Shown in pieces: positions 11,707 through 29,992 of a stretch of DNA of 32,000 nucleotides. Under the pieces are notes generated by a model. That model was not told where the DNA came from, ran no database searches, and saw only the letters and a program-made list of their open reading frames with translations. The translations under genes were made by a program, and so were the position numbers. The number at the start of each line of letters is the position of its first letter. The stretch's first letter is position 1. Source of the stretch: Candidatus Syntropharchaeum caldarium (GTDB taxonomy: Archaea; Halobacteriota; Syntropharchaeia; Syntropharchaeales; Syntropharchaeaceae); NCBI GenBank assembly GCA_001766815.1, contig LYOS01000003.1, forward strand, positions 256,742 to 288,741. Direction: 5' to 3'.

Positions 11707-12984
11707 TTACAACACCCCTGTTATGAAGTTTCCAGTGAGAACGATTATTCCTGCAACGATGTATGCAAGCACGAGCTGGTATAGCACCATGAACCCTGTC
11801 CACTTCCATGAACCTGTCTCTGCTCTGACTATTCCAAGCGTTGCAAGGCATGGGAGGTAGATCAGTGTGAACGCCATGAATGCGAGTCCTGTTACGGGTG
11901 TCATGTGGGCTGCAACTGCGCCTGTGATTGCGTCTTCGCCTCCGACACCGTAGAGGATTCCGAATGTCTCGACAACGATCTCCTTTGCGAGGAAGCCGAA
12001 GAAGAGTGCGATTGCTGCCATCCAGTCAAATCCGAGTGGTGCAAGGAGTGGTTCAAGTGTGTGTCCGAGCATCCCTGCATAGCTTGATTCGATCTCTCTG
12101 CCCCATGGGAATGATGCCATGAACCAGAGGACGAGTGCGCCACCGAGGAGGATTGTTCCAGCTTTTTTCAGGAATACCACTGCCCTTGACCACATGTAAA
12201 GTAAGACGCTCTTTATAGCGGGTCTGGCGTATGGTGGAAGTTCCATGATGAAAGGGGCTGGCTTTCCTCTGAGGCCTCGTATGAATCGTCTGAAGAGAAG
12301 TGCCATCAGTATTGCGAGCACGATTCCGAGGACGTACATCGAGAAGATCGCACTCCCTGCGTACGTGCCAAAGAGTGCACCTGCGATGAGGACATAGACC
12401 GGGAGCCTTGCACCGCATGACATCAGAGGGTTTATGAGAATCGTTATCAGCCGATCCTTCTCGTCTCCGATTGAGCGTGTTGCCATGATCGCCGGGAGGT
12501 TGCAGCCGAAGCCCATCAGCATCGGTATGAATGACCTCCCGTGAAGCCCGATCCGATACATCAGCCGATCCATCACAAAGGCGGCTCTTGGGAGATACCC
12601 GCTGTCTTCGAGGATTGCGAGTGCGATGAAGAGGAACATGATCGGGAAGATGAAGACCAGTACGAATCCAAGTCCTCCGCAGATCCCGTCAGCCCAAAGC
12701 GATATAAGTGGTGTAGTGGGCTCTCCTAAGAGTCCTCCAAGCCATCCGAATATGCGTTCGAGCATAACCATGAACGGCTCTGAGACTGTGAAGGCAAACT
12801 GGAATGTTGCCCACATGAGAGTCAAAAAGACGGGTATCCCGAGTCTCTTGTGGAGAAATACGCGGTCGAGGAGGTCTGATGTGGTGAGTGCGTGATCCCT
12901 GCGTCCAGCTAGCGAGGCATGGAGGATGCGATCTATCGCCCTGTATCGCTCCTCTGCAAATGTATCTGCGTTCATCTCTACCAT
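11707..12984 (-). CDS. feoB: ferrous iron transporter FeoB, membrane (gate/nucleoside-recognition) portion
   Basis: Begins with the FeoB linker pattern AEERYRAIDRI...LDRVFLHKRLGIPVFL, followed by polytopic membrane domains. The ATG overlaps the stop of the G-domain ORF (ATGGTAG) and is preceded by GGAGGTG. Confidence 0.9.
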   Translation of the reverse strand: MVEMNADTFAEERYRAIDRILHASLAGRRDHALTTSDLLDRVFLHKRLGIPVFLTLMWATFQFAFTVSEPFMVMLERIFGWLGGLLGEPTTPLISLWADGICGGLGFVLVFIFPIMFLFIALAILEDSGYLPRAAFVMDRLMYRIGLHGRSFIPMLMGFGCNLPAIMATRSIGDEKDRLITILINPLMSCGARLPVYVLIAGALFGTYAGSAIFSMYVLGIVLAILMALLFRRFIRGLRGKPAPFIMELPPYARPAIKSVLLYMWSRAVVFLKKAGTILLGGALVLWFMASFPWGREIESSYAGMLGHTLEPLLAPLGFDWMAAIALFFGFLAKEIVVETFGILYGVGGEDAITGAVAAHMTPVTGLAFMAFTLIYLPCLATLGIVRAETGSWKWTGFMVLYQLVLAYIVAGIIVLTGNFITGVL

Positions 12985-13682
12985 CCTGCCACCTCCAGGA
13001 TCTGATCCCGTTTTGGTGACGAGCTTATCCGAGCCATAACACTCTCATCCTTCTCAAGGAGTTTTATGGCAAGCCATCGTGGAGGATAGGTATTTGCGAG
13101 ATAGGTATCGGTGAGGATCAGCTCCTCAACCTCCTTGATGCGAGCCTCGATATCGTCACTGTAGCCGATCGTGACCTTACGATGCCTCTCCCTTCTCACC
13201 GCTGCACTGAGAATTGCATCTCGAAGCTCACCCATACCGCTCTGGGTCGTTGCAACCGTCGGGATAACAGGCACACCAAGAAGGAGTGAAAGCTCTTTAA
13301 TATCAAATTCATAATTCTTTGAAGCTGCAATATCCATCTTGTTCAGTGCGACGACGACGTTTGCCTCAAGCTCCAGCAAGAGAAGTGTTAGATACAGATT
13401 TCGCTCGATATTCGATGCATCAACGATATCAACCACGACATCAGGCTTCTCATCGACAATATAGTCTCTTGCAATCCGTTCATCTATCGCATCTGCTTCG
13501 AGGCTGTATGTGCCTGGAAGATCCACAATCTCCATCTCGGTTCCGTTGTGCGTGCACCTGCCTGTCTTCTTCTCAACCGTGACTCCTGGCCAGTTTCCAA
13601 CATGCTGCCTTGAGCCTGTCAGGTTGTTGAAGATCACGGTCTTTCCGACATTTGGATTTCCGATGAGTGCAACCCTGATCAC
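12978..13682 (-). CDS. feoB: ferrous iron transporter FeoB, N-terminal GTPase (G + helical S domain) as a separate polypeptide
   Basis: G1 GNPNVGKT, G3 DLPGTYSL, G4 NKMD; 234 aa, ending where the one-piece FeoB linker begins. Confidence 0.9.
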   Translation of the reverse strand: MIRVALIGNPNVGKTVIFNNLTGSRQHVGNWPGVTVEKKTGRCTHNGTEMEIVDLPGTYSLEADAIDERIARDYIVDEKPDVVVDIVDASNIERNLYLTLLLLELEANVVVALNKMDIAASKNYEFDIKELSLLLGVPVIPTVATTQSGMGELRDAILSAAVRRERHRKVTIGYSDDIEARIKEVEELILTDTYLANTYPPRWLAIKLLEKDESVMARISSSPKRDQILEVAGW

Positions 13683-13688
13683 CGTTTC

Positions 13689-14105
13689 TCACCTGCCATC
13701 AAGGTCCACAAGTATCTTCATAGCAATACCACGACCGAGCGCAATCCTTGATCCTTTCACATCAACGAGAAGCCCTGGAGATCCTGAGATCACCTTGACC
13801 TTAGAGGACGGCGTGAATCCAAGCTCGAGAAGTCTCTTTGCAACCCCTCTTCCGCCACAGTATCCAAGGATCACACCCTCATCGCCTGCAGAGAGGAGTC
13901 CGAGTGGAACGCCCGACTCCAGACTCTTACTATCTGCGATAAGCTCATGCAGGTGCTCATCGATCTCTTTGAGGTGCGAAGAGAGCTCTTCATCAGCTGG
14001 GTGGGACCTGAGTACATGCTCAACGTCCTCGTGGATATGTTCCACCTTCCTCTCTATCTCATGGATCTTCTTTGCACCAGAGATCCTATCTCTCATCCCA
14101 AACAT
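13689..14105 (-). CDS. feoA: FeoA-domain protein with a His/Glu-rich helical N-terminal extension of about 65 aa
   Basis: The C-terminal 75 aa are FeoA/SH3-like (LSAGDEGVILGY...RLLELGFTPSSKVKV...VDVKGSRIALGRGIAMKILV). I set the start at ATG 14105, which lies 1 nt after the feoA1 stop and 7 nt after GGAGGT. The longer track ORF overlaps feoA1. Confidence 0.75.
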   Translation of the reverse strand: MFGMRDRISGAKKIHEIERKVEHIHEDVEHVLRSHPADEELSSHLKEIDEHLHELIADSKSLESGVPLGLLSAGDEGVILGYCGGRGVAKRLLELGFTPSSKVKVISGSPGLLVDVKGSRIALGRGIAMKILVDLDGR

Positions 14106-14106
14106 A

Positions 14107-14337
14107 CTAAACCTCCACAGAGACGCACGCTGCCTCCTCCTTTCGAAGCGAGAGGTTGTACCCTTTGAGACGAAACTCCACAGGATCGCCAAGAGGCGCT
14201 CTTCTCACAACCTCGATCTCGGTGCCCCGGACAATCCCCATATCCCTGATCCGCCTCTGAACCGTGTTATCACCGCTAACTGAAAGGACTCTCCCCTTCT
14301 CACCAGGCTGCATATCACTCAGGGTCTTCTTCTTCAT
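14107..14337 (-). CDS. feoA: FeoA ferrous iron transport protein A
   Basis: 76 aa; LSDMQPGEKGRVLSV...RRIRDMGIVRGTEIEVVRRAPLGDPVEFRLKGYNLSLRKEEA is canonical FeoA. Confidence 0.85.
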   Translation of the reverse strand: MKKKTLSDMQPGEKGRVLSVSGDNTVQRRIRDMGIVRGTEIEVVRRAPLGDPVEFRLKGYNLSLRKEEAACVSVEV

Positions 14338-14348
14338 CTCATCACTCC

Positions 14349-14362
14349 TTAGGCATTCCTAA
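14349..14362. promoter_or_regulatory. putative DtxR-family operator (TTAGG-N4-CCTAA) in the feoA promoter/5' leader
   Basis: TTAGGCATTCCTAA sits between the TATA-like TTTTTTATATA (minus strand, about 14385-14395) and the feoA ATG (14337), and overlaps the AAGGAG Shine-Dalgarno. It has the same arm and spacing design as the palindrome at 14897-14910. Further TTAGG/CCTAA half-sites lie at 14380, 14401, 14411 and 14428. Confidence 0.5.
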
Positions 14363-14896: not shown

Positions 14897-14910
14897 TTAG
14901 GTTAACCTAA
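14897..14910. promoter_or_regulatory. perfect 14-bp palindrome TTAGGTTAACCTAA; putative autoregulatory DtxR box
   Basis: Exact self-complement. It abuts/overlaps a minus-strand TATA-like TTTATATT (14916-14909), about 25-30 nt upstream of the dtxR ATG (14886). The arms match the TTAGG/CCTAA arms of the classical DtxR/IdeR iron box. It overlaps the TAG stop of the upstream ATPase gene. Confidence 0.55.
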
Positions 14911-15791
14911 TATAAATCTTTTGTTACCCCATAATCCGACCTTATCCTCTCGAATATTGCCAGAAACTGCTTTTGCCAGTTACCAATCACTTTTATAAAT
15001 GGAATCCCTTTAGAATAGCTCTCTGCGATCTCCTTCAGGTATGGAATCTCAAGCAGAATATCAATTCCCTCATCGTTGCAGTAATCGTAAACCCCTCTAT
15101 CCCCGATCCCTGATCGATTGATTACGACGCCGAAGGGAATTTCAAGTTTTCTCAGGACTTTTACTGCGATTTTAAGATCGTAGAGTCCGAACGGCGTTGG
15201 TTCTGTTACGAGGATGCAGTAATCGCTATCCTTGACCGATGCGATGACAGGGCATGATGTGCCGGGTGGTGAATCGATGATGACTGTTCCTTCATCCCTA
15301 ATCTCACGCTTAACAGCCCTGACAAGTGGAACTGCCATCGCTTCACCTATATTGAGCGTACCATAAACAAGATCGATCCCCTCTTCTCCCTTTCCTTTTG
15401 CGATCTCACCGATTATGCGCTGCCCTTCGCTTATCGCATCCCTTGGGCATACAAGCATACAGCCCATACACCCATGGCAGAGTTCTGGAAAGTGGATCAC
15501 ATCCCCCTTCACGCCCTTCCCTGGGTTCTTGCCGATGACAAATATTGCGTTGAACTGACAGAACCTCGAACATTCCCCGCAGAAGTTGCATCTGAGTTTA
15601 TCGAATATTGGAACCGTTGTATATACAGGGTTCACCTCTTTTTCGGTTAGATTCAGGAATATGTGTGCGTTTGGCTCTTCAACATCACAGTCAAGGAGTT
15701 GAAGATTCTCGTTTTCAAGCGAGAGGGCAAGGTTGACTGCAACCGTTGTCTTCCCTGTTCCGCCCTTCCCGCTCGCAATTGATATGATCAT
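14907..15791 (-). CDS. MinD/Mrp/NifH-superfamily P-loop ATPase with inserted 2x[4Fe-4S] ferredoxin domain (COG1149-type)
   Basis: Deviant Walker A SGKGGTGKTT. Inserted CNFCGECSRFC and CHGCMGCMLVCP cluster motifs. Walker B-like VIIDSPPG. Confidence 0.9.
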   Translation of the reverse strand: MIISIASGKGGTGKTTVAVNLALSLENENLQLLDCDVEEPNAHIFLNLTEKEVNPVYTTVPIFDKLRCNFCGECSRFCQFNAIFVIGKNPGKGVKGDVIHFPELCHGCMGCMLVCPRDAISEGQRIIGEIAKGKGEEGIDLVYGTLNIGEAMAVPLVRAVKREIRDEGTVIIDSPPGTSCPVIASVKDSDYCILVTEPTPFGLYDLKIAVKVLRKLEIPFGVVINRSGIGDRGVYDYCNDEGIDILLEIPYLKEIAESYSKGIPFIKVIGNWQKQFLAIFERIRSDYGVTKDLY

Positions 15792-16151
15792 CTAATGCCT
15801 GTGCTCTCTGCATGCATTTTCATCGGTTGCCTCAGAGAGCCGCCCCTCCTGCCATGCCCTGATTGCATCTCGTACCGTCCCTGCTGCACCGACAAATACA
15901 TCGATCCCTGCCTGTTCAAACATCATTATCGCCCTTGGACCGAGTCCGCCACAGAGCATAACCTCAACACCCTCTTTTGCAAGTGCCTCTGGTGGAAGTC
16001 CAATACCTCCAAAGTGCTCGCTCGTATTGGGAATGGCTCTAACTTCGCCACTCTCTATATCCAGAATTGTAAAGGTTGGTGCCCTTCCGAAGTGCTCACA
16101 TACTGTATCATCCAGTCCCTTCATCTCATAGGTTGGTACACATACTTTCAT
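15792..16151 (-). CDS. NifX/NifB-C-terminal-like protein (dinitrogenase iron-molybdenum cofactor biosynthesis domain)
   Basis: 119 aa; EHFGRAPTFTILDIESGEV...EGVEVMLCGGLGPRAIMMFEQAGIDVFVGAAGTVRDAIRAW is the typical fold signature. The stop abuts the ATPase ATG (TAGATG) and the start overlaps the upstream stop (ATGA). Confidence 0.85.
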   Translation of the reverse strand: MKVCVPTYEMKGLDDTVCEHFGRAPTFTILDIESGEVRAIPNTSEHFGGIGLPPEALAKEGVEVMLCGGLGPRAIMMFEQAGIDVFVGAAGTVRDAIRAWQEGRLSEATDENACREHRH

Positions 16152-16603
16152 CTCAAATCACCTCGTATATCTTGTATCTTATTCTCAAACCATCCGATCT
16201 TGACCTCATCCGCGCCATCAAATTGAGGCACGTATGGTTTGATATCAATGAGTGGCGTACCATCAACGACATCCACTCCTTCAACCTTCAATATATTTCC
16301 CGCTCGTTCAAGAAGCTTCACGACAGAGACGCCTATGGGATTTGGCCTTCTCGGCGAACGGGTCGTGAAGAGTCCATGCGCTTCTGTATCCCATGGGGTC
16401 GTTACCATAAGCTGATACCCATCCGATTTATGAAGCCAGTAGAGGAGGATCAGGTGAGAGAAGCCTTCGATATCGGTTAAACCAGGCTCAAACTCATCGA
16501 AGACCTCAACCTCACAGATGGCATTTGATCTTGCAGTCTGGTGTGGACACTCGGATGAGGTCTTATAGGGTGTGTGGATTATTCCGATCGGTTCAATCTT
16601 CAA
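16148..16603 (-). CDS. TsaA/TrmO-like (YaeB/UPF0066) SAM-binding protein
   Basis: IEPIGIIHTPY...GFSHLILLYWLH...GLFTTRSPRRPNPIGVSVVKLL...VDGTPLIDIKPYVPQFD are hallmark TsaA-family motifs. Confidence 0.85.
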   Translation of the reverse strand: MKIEPIGIIHTPYKTSSECPHQTARSNAICEVEVFDEFEPGLTDIEGFSHLILLYWLHKSDGYQLMVTTPWDTEAHGLFTTRSPRRPNPIGVSVVKLLERAGNILKVEGVDVVDGTPLIDIKPYVPQFDGADEVKIGWFENKIQDIRGDLR

Positions 16604-17039
16604 CGCTCCTCCTCCTGTAATCTTCTATCGCTTCTTTCAGTGTGTTTACCGCGAGAACCGGGCAGTGGAGATGGTCCTCTGGCAACTCCTCCAGAACCTG
16701 CATGATATCCTGATCCTCGATTCTGGATGCCTCCTCGATCGTTTTACCTTTTACAAGCTGGGTTAATACGGAAGCAGATGCGATCGTGGGACCACATCCA
16801 TCTGTAAGGAACCTGATATCGATGATCCTGTCATGATCGACCTTAAGGGATATCGCTACCGTATCACCGCATGAACCTGTTATCGTTCCTTCTCCATCAG
16901 GGCTCTCGATCCTGCCCACGTTCCTCGGGTTGATGGCTTCCTCAACGACGCGCTCACTGAATTCCTTGAGTGCATCTTCGATGATCGATCGTTGTATCTC
17001 ATCTGCGATCTCATCGAGTGTTGAGGCTTTGGCTGTCAT
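16593..17039 (-). CDS. NifU N-terminal / IscU-like iron-sulfur cluster scaffold protein
   Basis: Three cluster-ligand Cys in the canonical contexts GSCGD, DGCGP and HCPVLA. I set the start at ATG 17039 (MTAKAS); the track start is a TTG at 17054. Confidence 0.85.
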   Translation of the reverse strand: MTAKASTLDEIADEIQRSIIEDALKEFSERVVEEAINPRNVGRIESPDGEGTITGSCGDTVAISLKVDHDRIIDIRFLTDGCGPTIASASVLTQLVKGKTIEEASRIEDQDIMQVLEELPEDHLHCPVLAVNTLKEAIEDYRRRSVED

Positions 17040-17051
17040 GGTATCATCACA

Positions 17052-17101
17052 CAAAAAAATAAAAAGAGCTTAGGCTCACTTAAACCTTACCTCTTAAGCT
17101 C
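17052..17101 (-). terminator. possible terminator: imperfect hairpin plus oligo-U tract after the DUF5320 gene
   Basis: The minus-strand RNA reads GAGCUUAAG-N18-CCUAAGCUC (7 bp, one A.C mismatch, then 1 bp), followed by UUUUUAUUUUUUU (plus-strand A-run 17052-17065). The stem is weak and the loop large. The oligo-U tract alone fits archaeal termination. Confidence 0.35.
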
Positions 17102-17356
17102 TTCCAGTCTTCGCTTTATCTGATCAAGCTGCGCCTCAAGCATCTGGATCTCCTGCTCCTTCGTCATACCTGCAGGTGCTCCCATTGGAGCCTGTTGCGC
17201 CCGCTGCTGCATCCATGAAGTAAACTGCGGCATCTGCCCGGTCTGGCTCAGATACTGTGCTCCTGGTGGCATTCCTCCCCAGCCAGGCGAATAGCCAAAT
17301 CGCATCCATCCAGGCAATCCAGTCGCGTAATACATGTTTCTCCATCCTCTTGGCAT
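17087..17356 (-). CDS. DUF5320-family protein (Gly/Pro/Met-rich N-terminus plus C-terminal coiled coil)
   Basis: Begins MPRG..., has a low-complexity G/P/M/W-rich middle and ends KEQEIQMLEAQLDQIKRRLEELKR. I moved the start to ATG 17356, 6 nt after AGGAGGTGA. Confidence 0.7.
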   Translation of the reverse strand: MPRGWRNMYYATGLPGWMRFGYSPGWGGMPPGAQYLSQTGQMPQFTSWMQQRAQQAPMGAPAGMTKEQEIQMLEAQLDQIKRRLEELKR

Positions 17357-17391
17357 ATCTATCACCTCCTTTTACACTTTTATCGTAAATT

Positions 17392-17568
17392 TCATGGTCT
17401 TATCATCCTCGCCCCACACTTGGGGCATGTCTGCTGGTAGCATGGCACACCACGCTGATGGGGTACTGTTGTTCCACAGCTCGGGCACCTACACTCACCG
17501 CCGGGTCCAAGTCCACGTCCACCGGGCATTCGACCTCGTCCACCACCTCCTCTGCCTATACCTGCCAT
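17392..17568 (-). CDS. 58-aa Arg/Gly-rich zinc-ribbon protein, missing from the ORF track because it is under 60 aa
   Basis: My translation: MAGIGRGGGGRGRMPGGRGLGPGGECRCPSCGTTVPHQRGVPCYQQTCPKCGARMIRP. GGAGGTGA lies 7 nt upstream of the ATG and is embedded in the stop region of the upstream gene. Two CPxCG knuckles. The ORF fills an otherwise empty 208-bp gap in a tight operon. Confidence 0.6.
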   Translation of the reverse strand: MAGIGRGGGGRGRMPGGRGLGPGGECRCPSCGTTVPHQRGVPCYQQTCPKCGARMIRP

Positions 17569-17573
17569 TCATA

Positions 17574-18149
17574 TCACCTCCCAACTTTCCTCTTCACTTC
17601 TTCCAGTTCTTTCTCGAGCTTATCTACACGCTCCAATAACGCATCTATATTCGTGCTCGGCTGAGGTGGCACCTGCTCTGGCATGCCCATGCCTCTGCCA
17701 CCACCTCCGCCACCGCGTCCCATTCCACGTCTTCCGCCCATACCCATACCTGCCCCTCCACCAGCAAATGTTTCAGGTGTAGATGGAGGCATCCCGGCGT
17801 GGCCTGGAACGGTTGCACCAGCGGTCTCACTGAGCTTACCGGCTCTGTACATCTCGATTGCATCCCTGATCGTGCCTGATGCACCTGTTAACACCCGCAC
17901 ACCAGCGGCAGTTAACGTCTGGAATGCATTTGGGCCAACGTTCCCTGAGATGAGGACGTCAACCCCTCTATTTGCAACTGTCTGCGCTGCCTGAATTCCC
18001 GCACCCGATGAAGCCCCGATGCCCTCGTTGGGAATCGCTTCAAACTCCATTGTGTCAGGGTCAATAATCATGAAATACTGGCACCTGCCAAAGCGTGGAT
18101 CAACCTGTGCATCAAGATCGCTTCCTGTCGAAGTTACACATATTTTCAT
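17574..18149 (-). CDS. NifX/NifB-C-like domain fused to a Gly/Met/Arg-rich linker and a DUF5320-like coiled-coil tail
   Basis: Residues 1-110 (MKICVTSTG...DPRFGRCQYFMIID...GVDVLISGNVGPNAFQTLTAAGVRVLTGASGTIRDAIEMY) form the FeMo-cofactor-binding-type fold. These are followed by GGGAGMGMGGRRGMGRGGGGGGRGMGMP and LLERVDKLEKELEEVKRKV. Confidence 0.85.
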   Translation of the reverse strand: MKICVTSTGSDLDAQVDPRFGRCQYFMIIDPDTMEFEAIPNEGIGASSGAGIQAAQTVANRGVDVLISGNVGPNAFQTLTAAGVRVLTGASGTIRDAIEMYRAGKLSETAGATVPGHAGMPPSTPETFAGGGAGMGMGGRRGMGRGGGGGGRGMGMPEQVPPQPSTNIDALLERVDKLEKELEEVKRKVGR

Positions 18150-18167
18150 TCAAACGCCTCCTTATAC

Positions 18168-18184
18168 GAATATATATTCAAAAC
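18168..18184. promoter_or_regulatory. 17-bp motif GAATATATATTCAAAAC (copy 1, contains the 12-bp palindrome GAATATATATTC) upstream of the NifX-fusion gene
   Basis: Exact repeat of 18600-18616. On the minus strand it directly follows a TATA-like TTTAAATA and precedes AAGGAGG and the ATG at 18149. Confidence 0.5.
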
Positions 18185-18187
18185 TAT

Positions 18188-18595
18188 TTAAAGATTTTGG
18201 TCAACACCCCTCCCATGTCTGCCTCGACCTCTGTAAAAAATATTCGTACTACCACAGCTCGGACACCGCTCAGCAAAATCACCCCACTCACTTCTGCAAT
18301 CACGGCACAGATTTCTAAGCGTGTAATCCCCACCATAGACCCGTATAGCCTTTCCATTAACGAGAGCATCCACAACCTTACGCCTCGCCTCTGTCAGAAT
18401 CCTGTGAAATGTAGATTGCGAGACACTCATCATCTTTGCAGCCTCGGTCTGATCCTTCTGGAGAAGATCCTTCAGCCTAAGGCTCTCAAGCTCCTCTACC
18501 TTGAGTATCACCTCTCCAGTGGGCCGTTCTCGCGGCGCAAAATAACTGAAATCAGGATTGAAGCCAACCCATCTGCAACGTCTTGGTCTCGGCAT
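18188..18595 (-). CDS. DUF134 (UPF0251) putative DNA-binding protein with C-terminal zinc ribbon and RG-rich tail
   Basis: Canonical DUF134 start MPRPRRCRWV. HTH region LLQKDQTEAAKMMSVSQSTFHRILTEARRKV. C-terminal CRDC...CPSCG followed by YRGRGRHGRG. I moved the start from the track's 18613 to ATG 18595. Confidence 0.85.
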   Translation of the reverse strand: MPRPRRCRWVGFNPDFSYFAPRERPTGEVILKVEELESLRLKDLLQKDQTEAAKMMSVSQSTFHRILTEARRKVVDALVNGKAIRVYGGDYTLRNLCRDCRSEWGDFAERCPSCGSTNIFYRGRGRHGRGVDQNL

Positions 18596-18599
18596 ACAT

Positions 18600-18616
18600 G
18601 AATATATATTCAAAAC
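18600..18616. promoter_or_regulatory. 17-bp motif GAATATATATTCAAAAC (copy 2) immediately upstream of the DUF134 gene
   Basis: Exact repeat of 18168-18184. On the minus strand it follows a TATA-like TTAATATA and ends 4 nt before the DUF134 ATG. Confidence 0.5.
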
Positions 18617-19955: not shown

Positions 19956-20001
19956 CTTTTCACCTGAATGAACTTCGGGAGCATACTTTCCTCTTTTAAC
20001 G

Positions 20002-20226
20002 TCACTTCAACTTTGAGAGAAATTCCTCTCTTTCTATCTTTGCCTGTTTCATAATAGAGATTAACGTTCCTTTGGCTAATTCATGATGATTCGGAACTGT
20101 AACAAGCAGTTTTTGCTCTTCATTCCACAAATGGATGTGACTTCCAGTTTGACGGTAAACTTGGAATCCAAACTTACTCAGAACTTTAATAACGTCCTTA
20201 GCTGACAGGACGGGAAGTTTGGACAT
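20002..20226 (-). CDS. hicA: HicA-family toxin (mRNA interferase, dsRBD-like fold)
   Basis: 74 aa; LSAKDVIKVLSKFGFQVYRQTGSHIHL...VPNHHELAKGTLISIMKQAKI is the canonical HicA pattern. The codon composition is AT-rich compared with the neighbours. Confidence 0.85.
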   Translation of the reverse strand: MSKLPVLSAKDVIKVLSKFGFQVYRQTGSHIHLWNEEQKLLVTVPNHHELAKGTLISIMKQAKIEREEFLSKLK

Positions 20227-20428
20227 ATTTTTCTACCTCAATATCCAAAAATGAGACTTTCCAATCCTTTGGAGCAAGTTCCATAAGAATTTGATAATGT
20301 TCTTCAAGCCCTTTTTTTAAATTTGCTACCGCTTCTTCTTCTGTCAGTCCTTGATCTGCTACATTTGTTATCAGGTCTACAGCTACAAAATATTTATCTT
20401 CTCTGTATATCTGGATTATAGTTTTCAT
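20198..20428 (-). CDS. hicB: HicB-like antitoxin (UPF0150 N-terminal fold only, no obvious DNA-binding domain)
   Basis: 76 aa; KYFVAVDLITNVADQGLTEEEAVANLKKGLEEH matches the HicB/UPF0150 core. It overlaps hicA by 29 nt. Confidence 0.7.
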   Translation of the reverse strand: MKTIIQIYREDKYFVAVDLITNVADQGLTEEEAVANLKKGLEEHYQILMELAPKDWKVSFLDIEVEKYVQTSRPVS

Positions 20429-20894
20429 ACTATCCCCAAATACATAAGATATAGAACGCTAAATATTAAAAGCATTAATAATATCGCTATTGTTCCACCT
20501 CTGATCACTTTATAATCATCTATCATTTATCCACTACCATGTTACTAAAGTCTCCATGGACTATCTTAATAAGTTCAATTTCTAAATTGAGATTTTGGTT
20601 TGAGTGATCCTGTGTCATGAGGGGAAAAGATTTTTCTTCTGCTATCAAGTATAATTTTACTTCTCTAAATTAATATACTTTTCTATCCCTAATCATAAAA
20701 AAGTCACGATACCCGCCCACATCTTTTTTATCTATGCTCAACCACCCCATGGCAACCCCGTTACCACAGATTGATCAGGACGCCAGTTTTTTAGATGTGA
20801 AATTCGCCGGTGTAATTCATCACTCCATTCCACCTTTTCGATATAAAAAGTTACGGAATACTCTCACTGGTACTGGATGAAGGAGTGGCATGAT

Positions 20895-21857
20895 TTATTT
20901 TGATGCATAAAAATCACTGTTTCTCATCCCCCTGAAATGATCATACCCCAGAGGAGAGAGCCTGTCTCCCGCTCCTTTCGCAACAACAGAGCCGATCACG
21001 GTGAAATCAACTAACTCCTCAAGTTCATCAATTTTCTCACGCCGAACCGTGAAGAGAAGCTCATAATCTCCACCAGCAGACCACGCAAACTCCAACAGAT
21101 CATCAGAATAGACTGGAATCTTCTCTTCATCGATCTTAAAACTGATCCCTGACGCGCGAGAGAGGTCAGAGAGCGATACCAAAAGTCCATCACTGATATC
21201 TGTCATTGAGGTGACATATCCTGAGTTAGAAAGTATCAAACCCTCCTCAACACGAGGAAATGGCTCAAGCAGTGCTTTAACAAGTGGGTTTGTTTGATCA
21301 AGATTCTCATCTTCCTTGAGTAGCCTTAAACCCCCACCAGCACTCCCGAGATACCCTGTAACGCAGACAAGATCCCCAATGCTGGCGCCGGATCTACGAA
21401 CAATTTTGCCATCTCCAGGGGTTCCGATCACGGTTCCGGTGAGTGTTATCTCATCATGCGAGTCGAGATCACCTCCGATCACTTCTACACCAAAACGAGA
21501 TGTGCAGGATTCAATACCCGAAATAAGCTCTTTAAAGGATTCAAGCTCGAAATCAGATGGAAGTCCGAGCGCACTTAAAAAATAAAGTGGTTTCGCACCC
21601 ATTGCAGCAATATCACTCAGATTCACCGCAACAAGACTCCATCCCATCTGGTATGGGGTCATCTGGGCTGGAAAGTCGGTCTTCTGGTGGAGCATATCCG
21701 ATGAAATGAGAATCTGTGCACCCTGTATTTCAACAACCGCGCAATCCTCCTCTTCACAGTCAAAGTAAGATGATACAAGCTCAATCAGCCTTCGCTCACC
21801 CGCATCACGCAGTAACTCGCTCAAAAGCCTCTCTCCTCTCAAGTGGCATGGTCGCAT
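20895..21857 (-). CDS. thiL: thiamine-monophosphate kinase (AIR-synthase-related fold)
   Basis: GERRLIELV, DCAVVEI...ISSDMLHQKTDF and MGWSLVAVNLSDIAAMGAKPLYFLSALGLP are ThiL motifs. The start is uncertain (ATG 21857, TTG 21842 or TTG 21824), and every option overlaps the UbiD 3' end. Confidence 0.7.
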   Translation of the reverse strand: MRPCHLRGERLLSELLRDAGERRLIELVSSYFDCEEEDCAVVEIQGAQILISSDMLHQKTDFPAQMTPYQMGWSLVAVNLSDIAAMGAKPLYFLSALGLPSDFELESFKELISGIESCTSRFGVEVIGGDLDSHDEITLTGTVIGTPGDGKIVRRSGASIGDLVCVTGYLGSAGGGLRLLKEDENLDQTNPLVKALLEPFPRVEEGLILSNSGYVTSMTDISDGLLVSLSDLSRASGISFKIDEEKIPVYSDDLLEFAWSAGGDYELLFTVRREKIDELEELVDFTVIGSVVAKGAGDRLSPLGYDHFRGMRNSDFYASK

Positions 21858-23061
21858 CAATCCCAACCTTTGTTGATGTGCCATCATCTGCCGCCGAAGG
21901 GTCGAGTGATGAACCACGTGCCCCAGGAATCACTACAAGATCCTTATCCCACCTCACACGGGTTGCCAGGGCATATTCAAGATCGTTTGGGTTAAAAAGA
22001 TCGATATCCTCATCCACAACAACAACCTGCTTTACTCCTGGTGCTGCTGCAAGCGCCGCAACTATCGCATTCTTGCCATCACCTTCACGCACCTTTCTGA
22101 TAGAGACGGCTGCATGGAAATATGTGCACCCGCCCGCTGTCATGACAGCATTCTTTGCATCAGCCACATGGCGCACGGCCTTCAGTATCAGAGGCTCGTA
22201 GGGCGTACCCATCAAAAGCTGATGTTCTCTGCCACCAGGTATGATCGAGTGATAGATCGGATCCTTCCTGTGATAGATCTGCGTGAGTTTTATGACAGGT
22301 TCAGAGCGCACTTCGTCGTACGTGCCTGTAATATCTACAAAAGGACCCTCGTTGGCCCTTTCTTCAGGATCGATCTCGCCTTCAAGTACAATCTCAGCAT
22401 GTGGTACAGCAATCCCATTATCGAGCCTGAAAAGCTCAACAGGTGCATTTCTGAGCATAGATGCATACTTGAACTCAAATCCAGGCTCAACTCTTGTCCC
22501 TGCTGCAAATAAGATCACTGGATCTACTCCTATCGCAATCCCAACTTTAAGTCCAACTCCCTGCTCACGCGCTTTTTTATGAAGCAGGTAGGTATGTCTT
22601 GGTGGAACGAGCCGTGCAGCAAGTTTATTTTTACCGATTACCATCAGGCGGTGAAAAGAGGCATTCACGATCCCATCAAACTCAGCCACAACGATCCCCG
22701 ACGTGATGTACGCACCCCCATCTGCCTCAAAGAACTTCATGATTGGGAGTGTGGTAAGATCTGCATCCTCCACAACTTCACGGGTCGGAGAATCATCGAC
22801 CACCCTGACCTCACTCTCGCTGGGGAGATCTACAAGATGTGCTGCGATATGCTCTTTTTTAACTCCAAGCACCTTTGAGAGAATGTTTCTCGACCCGATA
22901 AGATTCACACATGCTCTTTTCCCTGATAGATCTTTGAAGAGTATCGGGCTATCCGTCTTCCTTGCGATCCTGCATGCCTCAAGTTCAGGGGAGACAGGCT
23001 CATCGATCTCGATCAGTTCACCACACTCTTCAAGTTCATCCAGAAATGCTCTGAAACTCAT
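21805..23061 (-). CDS. UbiD-family (prenylated-FMN-dependent) decarboxylase, short archaeal type; candidate anhydromevalonate phosphate decarboxylase
   Basis: MSFRAFLDELEECGELIEIDEPVSPELE N-terminus and overall UbiD architecture; 418 aa. The family call is strong; the substrate assignment is inference only. Confidence 0.85.
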   Translation of the reverse strand: MSFRAFLDELEECGELIEIDEPVSPELEACRIARKTDSPILFKDLSGKRACVNLIGSRNILSKVLGVKKEHIAAHLVDLPSESEVRVVDDSPTREVVEDADLTTLPIMKFFEADGGAYITSGIVVAEFDGIVNASFHRLMVIGKNKLAARLVPPRHTYLLHKKAREQGVGLKVGIAIGVDPVILFAAGTRVEPGFEFKYASMLRNAPVELFRLDNGIAVPHAEIVLEGEIDPEERANEGPFVDITGTYDEVRSEPVIKLTQIYHRKDPIYHSIIPGGREHQLLMGTPYEPLILKAVRHVADAKNAVMTAGGCTYFHAAVSIRKVREGDGKNAIVAALAAAPGVKQVVVVDEDIDLFNPNDLEYALATRVRWDKDLVVIPGARGSSLDPSAADDGTSTKVGIDATMPLERREAFERVTA

Positions 23062-23889
23062 TCAAACAACTCCAAAACGTCTTGATAGTACTGCTGCAAA
23101 TTTAACCGATCCACTGTAACTCCCTCCTGCACGGGACGTGTCAACAAATGTTTTTCCAAGCTCATGGTGAACGGCTGCACCCCATGCACTCCCGCGCCCA
23201 AGAAATGTCAGTGTCCTGAAGATCAGATTGCCTGAAATGCCATCTGGGGCGATTATCAGGTTTGATTCACGAACCGCATCCTCAATCAGAATTTCATGGT
23301 GATGAACAGGATACCCCATCTGGGAGACCACATCAACAAGCGCCTTCCCTTCTTCAAGTGACCTATCGACACGCGCACTCCGTCCAGTATCACCAAGTCT
23401 TCCACCGGAGAGTATTCCAACCCTTGCCTTCATGCCGAAATTCTCAAGGATTCTTATACCATTCTCGATGAGCCTGAGTCTATCCTCAAAATTATCTCCC
23501 TCATCTATTCCAACCGGGGCAAAGAGAAACGGATCGAGATCAACAGGTTTTAGGAGTGCAACTCTTGCAAGGTTTGTGATACCCGACCTTCTTTTAAGAT
23601 AGGATAGCGTACTGGATGCTGGAAGTGAACCCCTGATAGCAGCATCAACCTCGTCGTTCATCAGTAGATCTACAAGTTCCTGCTCTGGTTTATCCGATAC
23701 AATGACTTTGCCCCCAACATCCTTGAGTTTGACCTTTGAACCTGTGACAAAGACCGGTTCTATAATCTCATCAATGCCTTCAAGCATCGAGAATGTTCTA
23801 TCGTCATTGACGCCGATAGCTATCCTGCATCGCCTGGGTAAATTGTTCTCGATGAATGAAAAGAGATTGTTATCTGGTCTAACTGCCAT
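23062..23889 (-). CDS. phosphate acyltransferase (PTA/PTB/PlsX) fold protein, MtxX / methanogen-marker-4-like
   Basis: C-terminal [32 protein letters not shown]...FVDTSRAGG mirrors the PTA-family D.A...PD..xGN..yK...dxSRg pattern. At 275 aa it is shorter than a true Pta. Its stop abuts the UbiD ATG with no gap. Confidence 0.5.
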
Positions 23890-24585: not shown

Positions 24586-25512
24586 GTGGCAGATGGGTTT
24601 GGTAATGTTGAGAAGATCTGGATGAATGGTAAGATCATCGATTGGCATGATGCAAAGATCCATGTCCTCTCACATGGTCTGCACTATGGATCGGGTGTGT
24701 TTGAAGGTATCAGATGTTACAGCACGCCCAGAGGGTCTTTTGTATTCAGGCTGACAGACCACCTTAAGCGGATGTTCAGGTCTGCAATCCCCTACAAGAT
24801 GCAAATTCCATACAGTCTTGATGAGCTTAAAAAGGCTGTCATAGATACAATCAAGGTGAACGGACTTGATTCATGCTATATACGTCCTATCGCATTCTAT
24901 GGGTATCACAGTCTTGGTGTTATACCTAAGAATTGTCCTGTCGAGTGCGTAATTGCAACATGGCCATGGGGCACGTATCTTGGAGAAGAGGCACTTGAAA
25001 ACGGGATCAGGTGCACATTCTCGGCATGGACAAAGATTCATCCAAAGATGTTGCCTGTGGGTGCAAAGGCTACGGGACAGTACATCAACTCGATGCTTGC
25101 AGGCTTTGATGCAAAGGAGAAGGGGTTTGATGAAGCACTACTGCTTGATAACGATGGATATGTTGCAGAAGGTCCTGGTGAGAACCTCTTTGTAGTCGAT
25201 GACGGCGTGATACACACTCCAACGCTCACATCAGCGCTTCCAGGTATCACGCGAGATGCAGCGATCAAAATCGCAAGAGACCTCGGCTATGAGGTGGTCG
25301 TCAGAAGTATCACGCGGGGTGAGGTGTTGACCGCAGATGAGCTCTTTTTCACTGGAACAGCAGCAGAAGTAACTCCAATCAGGGAGGTCGATGAAGTTAC
25401 AATTGGAGATGGAAAAAAAGGACCTGTAACTGCAGCAATCCAGAAAAAATTCTTCAAGATTGTGAATGCAGAAGAAGATGCATATATGGACTGGCTTGAA
25501 CCCGTAGAATGA
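24586..25512 (+). CDS. ilvE: branched-chain amino acid aminotransferase (PLP fold type IV)
   Basis: IWMNGKIIDWHDAKIHVLSHGLHYGSGVFEGIRCY, the catalytic Lys context (GAKATGQY), and EGPGENLF...GITR motifs; GTG start. Confidence 0.9.
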   Translation: MADGFGNVEKIWMNGKIIDWHDAKIHVLSHGLHYGSGVFEGIRCYSTPRGSFVFRLTDHLKRMFRSAIPYKMQIPYSLDELKKAVIDTIKVNGLDSCYIRPIAFYGYHSLGVIPKNCPVECVIATWPWGTYLGEEALENGIRCTFSAWTKIHPKMLPVGAKATGQYINSMLAGFDAKEKGFDEALLLDNDGYVAEGPGENLFVVDDGVIHTPTLTSALPGITRDAAIKIARDLGYEVVVRSITRGEVLTADELFFTGTAAEVTPIREVDEVTIGDGKKGPVTAAIQKKFFKIVNAEEDAYMDWLEPVE

Positions 25513-29975: not shown

Positions 29976-29992
29976 AGATAAGGGTGTGCTGG

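Follow-up and report, generated by a model that had tools for sequence, protein, structure and literature searches.

The closest described system is the ORP ('orange protein') cluster of Desulfovibrio, which comprises the ATPases Orp3 and Orp4, the NifX-domain protein Orp8, and MrpORP. Orp3 and Orp4 co-purify with Orp8 and, in vitro, take over Fe-S clusters from MrpORP (PMC6345978, PMC8359166). The Desulfovibrio authors lean to a link between the complex and cell division, yet call its role unclear (PMC8359166). IssA and IssX are NifX-domain proteins with cationic tails (PMC5524996). In Methanococcus voltae on pyrite, levels of NifX-domain 'IssA-clade' proteins increase along with those of FeoAB and DtxR (PMC8516115, PMC9431491).

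The locus described here, from Candidatus Syntrophoarchaeum caldarius, is an archaeal variant of the ORP cluster, which is widespread in anaerobes. It lies in a 32,000-nt stretch of DNA (the window). Re-reading of the ORFs bore out the preliminary description of eight co-directional genes, all on the minus strand, upstream of dtxR-feoA-feoA-feoB (Table 1). The same gene calls were obtained in an independent assembly (Logan SRR3669912). The tight junctions were likewise seen by direct reading: an 11-nt overlap TTGAAGATTGA between the IscU and TrmO-like genes, with AGGAGG upstream, an ATGA overlap between the TrmO-like and second NifX genes, and TAGATG where the latter abuts the ATPase gene. A gap of 20 nt separates the ATPase stop from the dtxR ATG. 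The DUF134 start was moved from TTG 18613 to ATG 18595, which an independent gene call confirmed; the DUF5320 and IscU starts were corrected as well. The scanned ORFs of the window include no gene for nitrogenase, NifEN, or NifB, as had been claimed; one SPASM-type radical SAM gene does occur. The domain identities given earlier are upheld by Pfam and NCBIfam profiles, except for the labels 'zinc ribbon' and, in its specific sense, 'NifH-like'.

Table 1. Features of the locus, in window coordinates.
Feature	Position	Strand	Basis
17-mer GTTTTGAATATATATTC, candidate DUF134 operator	18600..18616; palindrome core 18600-18611	-	exact repeat
DUF134 helix-turn-helix regulator, 135 aa	18188..18595	-	Pfam PF02001, 90.7 bits
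17-mer, second copy	18168..18184; core 18168-18179	-	sequence repeat
NifX-domain protein with tail, 191 aa	17574..18149	-	Pfam PF02579 91.2 bits, PF17253 29.3 bits
Six-Cys protein, 58 aa	17392..17568	-	alignment of 40 family members
DUF5320-type protein, 89 aa	17087..17356	-	Pfam PF17253, 20 bits
DUF5320-IscU intergenic element	17053..17083	-	sequence; putative function
IscU/NifU_N-type Fe-S scaffold, 148 aa	16593..17039	-	Pfam NifU_N, 119 bits
TrmO_N-only protein, 151 aa	16148..16603	-	Pfam TrmO_N, 128 bits; TIGR00104
Second NifX-domain protein, 119 aa	15792..16151	-	Pfam Nitro_FeMo-Co, 85.8 bits
MinD/Mrp-type deviant Walker A ATPase, 294 aa	14907..15791	-	ParA/CbiA and Fer4 profiles
Perfect palindrome TTAGGTTAACCTAA (TTAGGN4CCTAA box), DtxR-type operator candidate	14897..14910	.	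sequence
DtxR/MntR-family metal-dependent repressor, 151 aa	14431..14886	-	Pfam PF01325, PF02742
Perfect TTAGGN4CCTAA box, TTAGGAATGCCTAA on minus strand	14349..14362	.	sequence
Ferrous iron uptake genes	11707..14337	-	Pfam; junctions read
feoA	14107-14337	-	
feoA2, His-rich N-terminal extension	13689-14105	-	
FeoB G-domain ORF	12978-13682	-	
FeoB membrane ORF	11707-12984	-	
Radical SAM gene, SPASM type (only one in window)	25509-26519	+	

In the ATPase, switch I is followed by a 2x[4Fe-4S] insert of the ferredoxin kind. This COG1149 type is the architecture of Orp3 and Orp4, so the module has a precedent. 'NifH-like' is valid at the level of the SIMIBI superfamily only; by sequence and by fold, the protein is closest to archaeal MinD, ApbC/Mrp, and ParA. 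Among 158 homologues, the eight ferredoxin cysteines are conserved in 99-100%, C180 in 98%, and C35 in 87%. The AF2 model (pLDDT 85.6) includes a predicted C-terminal helix at residues 272-286. Typical clusters contain two paralogous ATPases, whereas this locus has one.

A census anchored on the ATPase covered 80 genomes of both domains, with co-directional genes counted within 6 kb. NifX-domain genes were present in 91% of loci, the 58-aa six-Cys family in 46%, a Mrp-like ATPase in 45%, IscU in 35%, DUF5320 in 34%, and DUF134 in 23%. DtxR (5/80, 6%) and FeoB (3/80, 4%) were rare. The closest archaeal loci (L006-L008, L082, and L085) show the same gene order. Synteny of the ATPase with the NifX-domain, six-Cys, IscU, DUF5320, and DUF134 families is thus seen repeatedly in both archaea and bacteria, and supports the proposal of a co-encoded, Fe-S-related protein set.

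All cluster ligands are present in the IscU protein. In the PDB, it is closest to 7c8m ('nitrogen-fixing NifU domain protein', 1.1e-28), which we take to be a methanogen IscU; the scaffold Cys and the His-Cys pair are aligned. In the relative L082, only a remnant of IscU is left, indicating that the other module components do not require the scaffold. The TrmO-like protein scores 156 against a cut-off of 93 for TIGR00104 and matches AF_0241 in the PDB (1e-38). It is an AdoMet-binding beta-barrel of class VIII that lacks the C-terminal DPRxxY domain associated with tRNA. Residues Q22, R82, D111, and K122, all invariant, match the AdoMet ligands of AF0241 (PMC4132733). The protein belongs to the archaeal YaeB/UPF0066 branch, which has no known substrate.

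The 191-aa protein combines a Nitro_FeMo-Co domain with a DUF5320 match above the gathering score. Its tail runs from a Pro-rich part through a Gly/Arg/Met-rich cationic part to a C-terminal DUF5320-type coiled coil. It resembles IssA/IssX, but residues 109-165 (pI 11.5, 20 Gly, 4 Arg) contain no Trp or Tyr, whereas aromatic residues are characteristic of the IssA tail. The 89-aa DUF5320 protein falls below the Pfam gathering score of 27 but reaches 124 bits with a local family HMM. Its N-terminal part is basic and rich in Trp, Tyr, Gly, Met, and Pro, and its C-terminus is a coiled coil. The second NifX-domain protein has an N-terminal CEHFG motif and a Cys/His-rich C-terminal end (ACREHRH). 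It matches TM1290 (3.7e-16) and the D. gigas orange protein 2wfb (4.7e-10).

The 58-aa protein has an RG-rich N-terminus followed by six conserved Cys and a His (CxCPxCG..PHQ..PC..CPKCG). Labelled a 'zinc ribbon' earlier, it matches no curated family above threshold in Pfam or NCBIfam; the module probably binds metal or Fe-S. The family comprises 1248 representative clusters (E<=1e-3). The module is fused to a NifX domain with an RG tail (L028), to DUF134 (L014), to CDF transporters (P0205, P0259), and, as repeats, to PDZ and NifX domains (P0151, P0153, P0155).

The DUF134 protein has a conserved N-terminal PRPRRCR motif and a C-terminal CxxC...CxxC followed by an RG-rich tail; a search for a PDB relative found none. 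The 17-mer GTTTTGAATATATATTC is present exactly twice in the window. The first copy is separated by 4 nt from the downstream ATG of DUF134 and follows the TATA-like TTAATATA at a distance of 2 nt. The second abuts the TATA-like TTTAAATA and precedes the NifX-tail gene, from whose ATG it is 18 nt away; AAGGAGG lies within this interval. The position of the second copy is kept in L008 and L082. Both palindrome positions of the window are conserved in L082. In L007, L008, and L082, the DUF134 start carries this same palindrome, and bacteria have variants of it. In the 80 loci (1.12 Mb), GARYATATRYTC has 11 exact matches versus 1.34 expected. Of 13 exact copies, including the window's own, 6 are at DUF134 starts and 4 are upstream of NifX-domain, NifX-tail, or tail genes. 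The palindrome marks the promoters of DUF134 and module genes across phyla, which supports the suggestion of a dedicated regulator. It is a candidate DUF134 operator, through which DUF134 may regulate its own gene.

The DtxR protein matches MntR-type NCBIfam models below their cut-off. The box TTAGGTTAACCTAA shares bases with the stop codon of the ATPase gene and precedes the dtxR ATG by 10 nt. The feoA box lies 11 nt upstream of the ATG, overlapping the ribosome-binding site, with a TTTATATA element upstream. The Altiarchaeota locus L031 has the gene order of the window (ATPase, dtxR, feoA, feoA, split feoB), the same box type at the dtxR start, and, 14 nt before feoA, an exact box. Exact copies of TTAGGN4CCTAA are confined to dtxR and feoA starts, in the window and L031. 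A one-mismatch DtxR-like box (17070-17083), unique to the window, precedes the IscU gene; after it comes a T-run CTTTTTATTTTTTT (17053-17066) that is likely an archaeal terminator and/or TATA element.

The preliminary description treated the eight genes as one operon running into feo. At least five promoters are suggested by sequence features, so this is probably not the case. The putative units would be DUF134, autoregulated via GAATATATATTC between the TATA-like element and the start codon; the NifX-tail, six-Cys, and DUF5320 genes, behind the same box; four translationally coupled genes from IscU to the ATPase, after the T-run and the one-mismatch box; dtxR, after a perfect box; and feoA-feoA-feoB, after a further perfect box.

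It is likely, with a probability of about 0.58, that the locus is an ORP-type Fe-S handling cluster with IssA/IssX-like components beside an iron regulon. The NifX-domain proteins would carry labile Fe-S or metal-sulfide species, which the cationic RG tails, the aromatic and Gly-rich DUF5320 protein, and the six-Cys module would hold or buffer. The DUF5320 protein may pair with the NifX-tail protein through their common C-terminal coiled coil. ATP and electrons, the latter via the ferredoxin insert, would power loading or unloading by an ATPase dimer, with transfer between the IscU scaffold and carrier or storage proteins, or further on to apo-proteins. Such action would be comparable to that of Mrp/NBP35 and other SIMIBI metallochaperones. 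How much of the carrier/storage branch is made would depend on DUF134. Fe(II)-DtxR would repress iron import and, in this organism, possibly the scaffold/ATPase branch as well.

This Fe-S handling reading is supported by the domains, the census and the shared gene order, the co-purification and Fe-S transfer of the ORP proteins (PMC6345978), the Rosetta-stone fusions, the enrichment of GARYATATRYTC, the DtxR boxes in the window and L031, and the co-rise in M. voltae. Against it, ORP-type complexes have no demonstrated function, and their authors prefer the division link. The window encodes neither a cysteine desulfurase nor a Mrp-like partner. The rarity of DtxR/Feo adjacency, the mismatch of the box before IscU and its restriction to the window, the IscU remnant in L082, the tail without IssA-type aromatics, and the reliance of promoter and terminator assignments on sequence also weigh against it.

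The linkage to DtxR-Feo is facultative, as it is absent from an 80%-identical relative, in which the genes downstream of the ATPase encode a radical SAM protein and a ModE-like regulator instead. It is possible, though we do not favour it, that the adjacency is incidental and that the module obeys DUF134 alone, in response to redox, sulfide, or cluster status, with no specific tie to ferrous iron uptake. The low census counts fit this, as does the nearest relative, which has neither DtxR nor Feo. Moreover, dtxR is equipped with a TATA-like element and box of its own, as is feoA, and the total of TTAGGN4CCTAA in census loci (2 versus 1.2 expected) is not above chance. However, five loci (L011, L021, L028, L031, L057) have DtxR or Feo directly next to module genes, and the linkage arose repeatedly in lineages distant from one another: Altiarchaeota, Clostridia, Bathyarchaeia, Methanocellaceae, and Methanohalophilus. 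The dtxR gene is inside the module in L021 and directly after DUF134 in L011, and the DtxR-like box of the window sits exactly in the gap upstream of IscU. The co-induction in M. voltae (PMC8516115) also weighs against an incidental adjacency.

It is unlikely that the cargo is a Mo/W or other heterometal sulfide, with NifX-domain carriers and ATPase-powered insertion of Mo/W-S or Mo-Cu-S clusters serving Mo/W enzyme maturation or thiometallate detoxification. In favour of this, the orange protein, itself of the NifX-domain type, is a binder of a [S2MoS2CuS2MoS2] cluster (cited in PMC6345978), and the second NifX protein of the locus matches it. In the 80%-identical relative, the radical SAM gene is translationally coupled to the ATPase gene, and the ModE/Mop molybdate-type regulator lies ~2 kb further downstream. 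The best match of that radical SAM protein is a tungsten-cofactor oxidoreductase maturase, but a weak one (54.8 bits versus a cut-off of 380). Against it, genes for Mo/W transport, ModE, and pterin are all missing from the window, IscU is a frequent cluster member, and the recurrent regulator/transporter neighbour in the census is DtxR/Feo, not ModE.

A role of the ATPase in positioning or division, like that of MinD, with the Fe-S neighbours as mere maturation or redox-sensing accessories, is suggested by its match to archaeal MinD, its predicted C-terminal helix, the morphological defects of an orpR mutant, and the polar location of MrpORP (PMC6345978, PMC8359166). It is very improbable, as no MinC/E, FtsZ, CdvABC, or ParB gene is linked in the window or recurrent in the 80 loci, cluster carriers, a scaffold, and Cys-rich modules are the constant partners, the fusions link the module to NifX domains and metal transporters, and the Desulfovibrio authors themselves leave the role unclear.

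Two recurring components of the module had previously gone unrecognised. The six-Cys module is a new, unannotated recurring component, and members of the archaeal YaeB branch, as newly seen here, often lie inside IscU/ATPase clusters. The palindrome GARYATATRYTC and the boxes before dtxR, feoA, and IscU offer testable candidate binding sites for regulators.

The eight genes all lie on the minus strand in the order DUF134, a NifX-domain protein with a C-terminal tail (NifX-tail, 191 aa), a 58-aa protein with six cysteines (six-Cys), DUF5320, IscU, a TrmO-like or YaeB-type protein, a second NifX-domain protein (NifX2, 119 aa) and an ATPase, followed by dtxR-feoA-feoA-feoB. Reading of the window sequence confirms this arrangement, as the preliminary description had given it. 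Searches with Pfam and NCBIfam detected DUF134, Nitro_FeMo-Co (PF02579, the NifX domain) with a DUF5320-type C-terminus, NifU_N, TrmO_N, a second Nitro_FeMo-Co and a ParA/CbiA ATPase with a dicluster ferredoxin insert. The tight junctions reported earlier are also present in the sequence: the NifU and TrmO-like genes overlap by 11 nt (TTGAAGATTGA) with AGGAGG before the overlap, the TrmO-like and NifX genes share ATGA, and the NifX and ATPase genes abut at TAGATG. The ATPase stop lies 20 nt from the ATG of dtxR. Gene calls are identical in an independent public assembly, which fixes the starts of the DUF134, DUF5320 and NifU genes. The DUF5320 name of the 89-aa protein falls below the Pfam threshold (20 bits against 27), but the protein is a clear member of the family with a locally built HMM (124 bits). 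A protein of Candidatus Syntrophoarchaeum caldarius, an archaeon that oxidises butane, matches the ATPase with 100% identity.

No Fer4_NifH, NifB or Oxidored_nitro match was found among the scanned ORFs of the window, in agreement with the earlier statement that nitrogenase, NifEN and NifB are absent. The radical SAM gene of the window, considered as a hidden NifB, is of the SPASM type. An apparent second ATPase is a polyferredoxin without a P-loop, matched because the HMM includes the ferredoxin insert; this 393-aa protein has multiple [4Fe-4S] motifs and is encoded downstream of a bifunctional-nuclease-domain gene. Elsewhere the window holds ordinary archaeal housekeeping genes (RNase P p30, LonB, PCNA, primase, NAC and two tRNAs), and the two tRNAs, both outside the locus, were the only structured RNAs in an Rfam scan of the window. 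A gene for a HicA toxin (74 aa) overlaps an upstream 76-aa gene, probably for a HicB-type antitoxin. The pair lies in a kilobase with a GC content of 0.37, the one markedly AT-rich kilobase of a window that is otherwise at about 0.47, which suggests a small inserted element. Upstream of the locus, genes for a UbiD-family decarboxylase, a 275-aa protein without a Pfam match and an AIR-synthase-related protein are co-directional, and the three are also adjacent in the independent assembly. FeoB is encoded by two ORFs, one for the G-domain (234 aa) and one for the membrane part (425 aa), which overlap at ATGGTAG. The break between them is within the FeoB_Cyto helical domain. Separate FeoB-N and FeoB-C genes are also observed in two of the compared loci, L031 (Altiarchaeota) and L005, so this may be a genuine split gene, with a sequencing error as the alternative. 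The second FeoA (138 aa) begins 1 nt past the stop of the first. Its FeoA domain is preceded by an N-terminal extension rich in His and Glu, with about 8 His among 45 residues, and this extension could be a metal-binding segment.

Coordinates of features in the window and, in the last row, in the relative with the 80%-identical ATPase
Feature	Position	Strand
FeoB, two ORFs	11707-13682	-
Second feoA	13689-14105	-
Eight-gene module	14907-18613	-
NifU (IscU) start	17039	-
DUF5320 start	17356	-
DUF134 start	18595	-
AT-rich kilobase	20001-21000	
HicA-toxin gene and overlapping 76-aa gene	20002-20428	-
UbiD, 275-aa and AIR-synthase-related genes	21805-23889; 20895-21917	-
Class IV aminotransferase	24586-25512	
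Radical SAM gene, SPASM type	25509-26519	
Polyferredoxin	29960-31141	+
IscU remnant, radical SAM and ModE features of the relative	L082: 7049-7177, 8813-11286; L083: 8861-9688	

Two sets of palindromic motifs were observed. The 17-mer GTTTTGAATATATATTC, which contains the perfect palindrome GAATATATATTC, has exactly two copies in the 32 kb, one directly 5' of DUF134 at 18600-18616 and the other directly 5' of the NifX-tail gene at 18168-18184, and both are at most 2 nt downstream of a TATA-like octamer. The second motif, TTAGGN4CCTAA, is perfect over the ATPase stop at 14897-14910, 10 nt 5' of dtxR, and again at 14349-14362, 11 nt 5' of feoA. A copy with one mismatch at 17070-17083 lies between the DUF5320 and IscU genes, beside the T-run CTTTTTATTTTTTT, which looks like an archaeal terminator or TATA element. 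The two sets divide the locus, suggesting five transcription units rather than one long operon. These would be DUF134; NifX-tail, six-Cys and DUF5320; IscU, the YaeB-type protein, NifX and the ATPase; dtxR; and feoA-feoA-feoB. A scan for sigma70 promoters and intrinsic terminators gave results at or below chance and is uninformative for an archaeon.

A gene-neighbourhood census, as proposed in the preliminary description, shows that the synteny of the module recurs in archaea and bacteria. The census was anchored on the ATPase and covered 80 loci from different species at 49-61% identity, including Bathyarchaeia, ANME-1/Methanophagales, Thermoplasmata, Altiarchaeota, Omnitrophota, Desulfobacterales, Dehalococcoidia, Planctomycetes and Clostridia. 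Co-directional genes within 6 kb were annotated with family HMMs built iteratively from the window proteins, and a P-loop was required for an ATPase. The NifX domain was found at 91% of the 80 loci, the six-Cys family at 46%, an Mrp-like ATPase without ferredoxin (sometimes fused to NifX) at 45%, IscU at 35%, DUF5320 at 34%, DUF134 at 23%, NifX with tail at 21% and a TrmO-like protein at 5%. A tandem pair of ferredoxin-insert ATPases is encoded at 77 of the 80 loci, and thus the single ATPase of the window is atypical. The closest archaeal loci (L006-L008) have the order DUF134, NifX-tail, six-Cys, DUF5320, IscU, NifX, ATPase, ATPase.

The closest known system is the orange protein (ORP) complex of Desulfovibrio vulgaris and D. 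alaskensis, which consists of Orp3, Orp4, Orp5, Orp7, Orp8 and Orp9 (MrpORP) with the regulator OrpR. By its described architecture, it shares with the locus a MinD-type ATPase with two [4Fe-4S] ferredoxin motifs (Orp3/Orp4), and NifX-domain ("Di-Nase") proteins are encoded beside the ATPase in both. NifX2 is a single-domain NifX protein like Orp8, the orange protein, and in a PDB search its residues 6-110 matched the D. gigas ORP structure (2wfb; E = 4.7e-10). In contrast to the ORP operons, the locus has one ATPase instead of the tandem paralogues Orp3/Orp4, lacks the Mrp-NifX fusion (Orp9) within 32 kb, and has DUF134 with a palindromic box in place of the sigma54 activator OrpR. No Mrp-like gene was found in the window, where NF041136 gave only partial, sub-threshold matches. 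IscU, the YaeB-type protein, DUF5320 and the tailed NifX protein are extra members, and DtxR-Feo adjoins. Since the ATPase type and the NifX proteins are shared while the ATPase pair and the Mrp-NifX fusion are not, the locus belongs to the ORP kind in part. The novelty claimed earlier was too strong, because the core module is already known as a kind; what makes the locus a distinct variant is that it has only one ATPase, a YaeB-type protein embedded among the other members, DUF134 as regulator and DtxR-Feo next to it. In Desulfovibrio, Orp3/Orp4 co-purify with the NifX-domain protein Orp8 and take Fe-S clusters from MrpORP (PMC6345978). The ORP operons are activated at low redox potential by OrpR, and their role was called unclear by the authors; they are restricted to anaerobes and have been suggested to originate in archaea (PMC8359166).

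The tailed NifX protein can also be compared with IssA, the thioferrate storage protein of Pyrococcus furiosus, and IssX. In these, a NifX domain (IPR003731) at the N-terminus leads into a Pro-rich segment, and the tail that follows is cationic, Gly-rich and probably disordered (PMC5524996). The same order is seen in the 191-aa protein, where PF02579 covers residues 13-102 (91.2 bits) and residues 109-165 contain 8 Pro, 20 Gly and 4 Arg with a pI of 11.5, no Trp or Tyr and one Phe. In contrast to IssA, the tail has Met in place of aromatics and a coiled coil at its end, and the aromatic/Gly-rich chemistry is on the separate DUF5320 protein. The protein thus appears to resemble IssA/IssX in domain order and tail charge, not in aromatic content. 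In a Clostridia homologue, the same tail runs into the six-Cys module, and so the tail may be a linker rather than mineral-binding.

The locus is best read, with a probability of about 0.58, as a module for Fe-S carriage or storage and delivery. The NifX domains would be the carriers, with the RG-rich tails, DUF5320 and the six-Cys module retaining or buffering labile species. Transfer to or from IscU and client proteins would be driven by the ATPase together with its electron-transfer insert. DUF134 would control the carrier branch, and DtxR would control iron import.

The DtxR protein of the window carries PF01325 and PF02742, and its best NCBIfam matches are MntR models, below their cut-off. 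As in DtxR/IdeR-Feo regulons, exact candidate TTAGGN4CCTAA boxes lie 5' of both dtxR itself and feoA. The actinobacterial DtxR/IdeR box is TTAGGTTAGCCTAACCTAA; the core is similar, but the palindrome is 14 bp here versus 19 bp there. The boxes are conserved in the Altiarchaeota locus, which has the order ATPase, ATPase, dtxR, feoA, feoA and split feoB. Elsewhere, dtxR-feoA-feoB is directly 5' of the module (Clostridia, L028), dtxR lies within the module (Methanocellaceae, L021) or it follows DUF134 (L011, a MAG labelled Nitrososphaeria). Three exact copies of TTAGGN4CCTAA are present in 1.13 Mb of loci, and each marks the start of dtxR or feoA, either in the copy of the window or in L031; this total is not above chance, and the evidence therefore lies in the positions. 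In proteomics of Methanococcus voltae, NifX-domain "IssA-clade" proteins increased with FeoAB and DtxR on pyrite (PMC8516115, PMC9431491). The repeated linkage, the box positions and these proteomic data make a functional tie to iron status probable. The direct link to iron import and its repressor, as first described, is real as an adjacency and recurs in distant lineages, but it is facultative and rare (DtxR at 6% and FeoB at 4% of the 80 loci). That the adjacency of dtxR-feo is incidental is the less probable view, though one to be taken seriously, and it is compatible with the reading as an Fe-S delivery module. DtxR possibly controls the IscU-to-ATPase genes, the scaffold/ATPase branch, as well. 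No DtxR-type boxes were found 5' of IscU or TrmO in the Syntrophoarchaeum relatives.

The closest relative, GCA_029933905.1 (loci L082 and L083), has an 80%-identical ATPase and encodes DUF134, NifX-tail, DUF5320, a TrmO-like protein, NifX and a single ATPase. Of its IscU only a C-terminal remnant of 42 aa is left, with Gln-Ser in place of the His-Cys ligand pair. The ATPase gene overlaps a radical SAM gene, a ModE/Mop-type regulator is encoded further downstream, and dtxR-feo is absent. In Syntrophoarchaeum WYZ-LMO15 (68% identity), the order is DUF134, DUF5320, NifX, IscU, TrmO-like, NifX, two small genes and the ATPase. By the gene content of these relatives, having one ATPase and an inserted TrmO-like gene is a trait of the lineage, and adjacency to DtxR-Feo is not. 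A role in handling Mo- or W-sulfide species instead of Fe-S clusters is unlikely, though the Mo-Cu cluster of the orange protein favours it, as do the genes for a radical SAM protein and a ModE-like regulator downstream of the ATPase in the closest relative. The radical SAM protein of the relative is not NifB; its weak best match is a tungsten-cofactor oxidoreductase maturase.

The ATPase has more than 8000 homologues at E<=1e-10. It shares the deviant Walker A (GKGGTGKT) and the dimeric ATPase fold with Mrp/NBP35/ApbC and NifH/BchL of the SIMIBI class. In contrast to these, it has a ferredoxin insert of roughly 90 residues with two [4Fe-4S] motifs (CxxCxxCxxxC) after switch I; it lacks the CxxC bridging motif of Mrp, and no nitrogenase-like catalytic partner such as those of NifH/BchL is encoded here. 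No solved structure with this insert architecture was found in the PDB search. The AF2 model is confident (pLDDT 85.6), and in Foldseek archaeal MinD, ApbC and ParA came first, followed with similar scores by BchL and NifH; Cfd1 was also among the matches. The name "NifH-like" thus holds at the superfamily level only, as no Fer4_NifH match was found and MinD/ApbC/ParA rank first. Specific kinship to NifH was rejected, and only two cysteine positions recall it. Among 158 homologues, the eight ferredoxin cysteines are conserved at 99-100%, C180 (PPGTSC, 7 residues past the Walker B Asp) at 98% and C35 (DCD, switch I) at 87%. C35 aligns with Cys38 of Azotobacter vinelandii NifH, and the spacing of C180 after the Walker B Asp is that of the switch II cluster ligand of NifH. 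It is possible that C35 and C180 form a further metal site at an interface. A MinD-like positioning role, which the order of the fold matches would recall, is very improbable.

IscU is full length and has three Cys and one His ligand, including the His-Cys pair, aligned to its top PDB match (7c8m). It is a canonical ISC scaffold, for which Archaeoglobus IscU (4eb5) is the other reference. In contrast to ISC operons, no IscS/NifS desulfurase, HscAB or ferredoxin gene is adjacent, and the scaffold is translationally coupled to the YaeB-type protein. The window contains no aminotransferase class V gene for a cysteine desulfurase; its sole aminotransferase is of class IV.

The closest structural relative of the TrmO-like protein in the PDB search is Archaeoglobus AF_0241 (1e-38), and it scores 156.5 against a cut-off of 93.25 with TIGR00104. 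The AdoMet-contacting residues of AF0241, Gln22, Arg82, Asp111 and Lys122, are invariant, and the beta-barrel AdoMet-binding domain with all four contacts is that of the TrmO/YaeB tRNA m6t6A methyltransferase (PMC4132733). The protein ends at residue 151 with a TrmO_N match only, and the C-terminal DPRxxY domain is absent. This domain is required by E. coli TrmO for tRNA methylation and is missing from archaeal YaeB; m6t6A has never been found in archaeal tRNA, and archaeal YaeB may use another substrate (PMC4132733). A second census was anchored on the TrmO-like protein and covered its 80 closest relatives in metagenomes, counting co-directional module genes within 1.5 kb. Such a gene was found at 36 of the 80 loci and at 15 of the 28 with full flanks. 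The neighbours were IscU (14), ferredoxin-insert ATPases (13), ferredoxin fragments (13), Mrp-like ATPases (6) and NifX (5), with ATPase-TrmO-ATPase, TrmO-IscU and IscU-TrmO as recurring orders. The TrmO-like subfamily is thus no passenger but a recurring component of the module. No statement of a link between YaeB-type proteins and an Fe-S module was found in the literature searched.

For the 58-aa protein, the earlier label "zinc ribbon" is not borne out: six Cys and a His are conserved, and no curated model of Pfam or NCBIfam matched. Alignment of 40 family members gives the common pattern GxGRGGxGRGRMGG..GPxGxCxCPxCG...PHQxGxPC....CPKCGxxMxR. In an exhaustive search at E<=1e-3, 1248 representative clusters were recovered, all of them without a Pfam family and named "hypothetical protein" at the source. 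The module occurs at the C-terminus of cation-diffusion-facilitator transporters (P0205, P0259), is repeated 3-5 times between the PDZ and NifX domains of proteins about 770 to 1430 aa long (P0151, P0153, P0155), is joined to a NifX domain via the same RG-rich tail in the Clostridia locus and is fused to DUF134 in L014. Such fusions point to a module that binds metal or clusters, is portable and works with NifX domains. At many loci in the census, the six-Cys gene is directly 5' of the ATPase pair, in the position of Orp5. By this position and its Cys content, the six-Cys protein probably corresponds to Orp5/Dde_3197, which is reported to bind [2Fe-2S] (cited in PMC6345978). P0151, P0153 and P0155 (772-1430 aa) each have two PDZ domains, 3-5 six-Cys copies and 1-3 NifX domains, and resemble scaffold versions of the module on a giant scale. 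P0151 appears to have a membrane anchor at its N-terminus, and its six-Cys copies are spaced by Pro/Gly/Gln repeats.

Comparison of upstream regions showed that the palindromes 5' of DUF134 genes are related across phyla. The GAATATATATTC form is found in Syntrophoarchaeum and ANME-related archaea, and GAACATATGTTC, GAGCATATGCTC or GAACATATGCTC in Desulfobacterales, Zixibacteria and other bacteria; Ignavibacteria and Chloroflexota have the palindrome with one mismatch. Exact matches to the consensus GARYATATRYTC number 11 in the 80 independent loci, where shuffles gave 1.34 ± 1.07 and never more than 5. With the window's own copy there are 13, of which 6 are at DUF134 starts and a further 4 are 5' of NifX-tail, tail or NifX genes. 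Both GAATATATATTC boxes are kept at the same two positions in the 80%-identical relative. The enrichment and the positions at DUF134 and module gene starts support the idea of a dedicated regulator and give it a concrete candidate site. In four Bathyarchaeia-type loci (L003, L010, L011 and L020), repeated ATGCACA / GCATATGCAC elements lie 5' of DUF134 instead of GARYATATRYTC; they may be a diverged operator with a common CATATG-like core. No functional literature on DUF134/UPF0251, DUF5320 or COG1149 was found in the literature searched, and the PDB search gave no solved structure related to DUF134.

Three leads appear unreported: the DUF134 box, the six-Cys module with its fusions and the link between YaeB-type proteins and Fe-S clusters. 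That archaeal YaeB/TrmO-like proteins, DUF134 and the six-Cys family, three orphan families, jointly find their function in one module is a tentative and rather doubtful proposal. If so, the YaeB-type protein may be a partner of IscU and the ferredoxin-insert ATPase instead of a tRNA methyltransferase, acting for example by methylation, or by another use of AdoMet, on a cluster carrier or on a species bound to a cluster. DUF134 may be a cluster- or metal-sensing regulator that binds GARYATATRYTC in archaea and bacteria, and the six-Cys module may be a new portable Fe-S or metal-binding domain linking NifX carriers, regulators and CDF transporters.

ORP-type clusters are present in very many anaerobic archaea and bacteria, and their function has been open since the orange protein was described. 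Three experimental handles come from the locus and its relatives. One is the candidate DUF134 operator, conserved between archaea and bacteria; the second is the set of naturally fused proteins in which the six-Cys module is tied to NifX carriers or metal transporters; and the third is the DtxR boxes, which connect part of the module with iron status. The locus is also the first genomic context that points to a role for archaeal YaeB, whose substrate has been open since 2014. Syntrophoarchaeum-like alkane and methane oxidisers rely heavily on Fe-S enzymes, and how they acquire, store and deliver the clusters is poorly known (PMC8351635). The locus thus bears on Fe-S supply in alkane- and methane-oxidising archaea.
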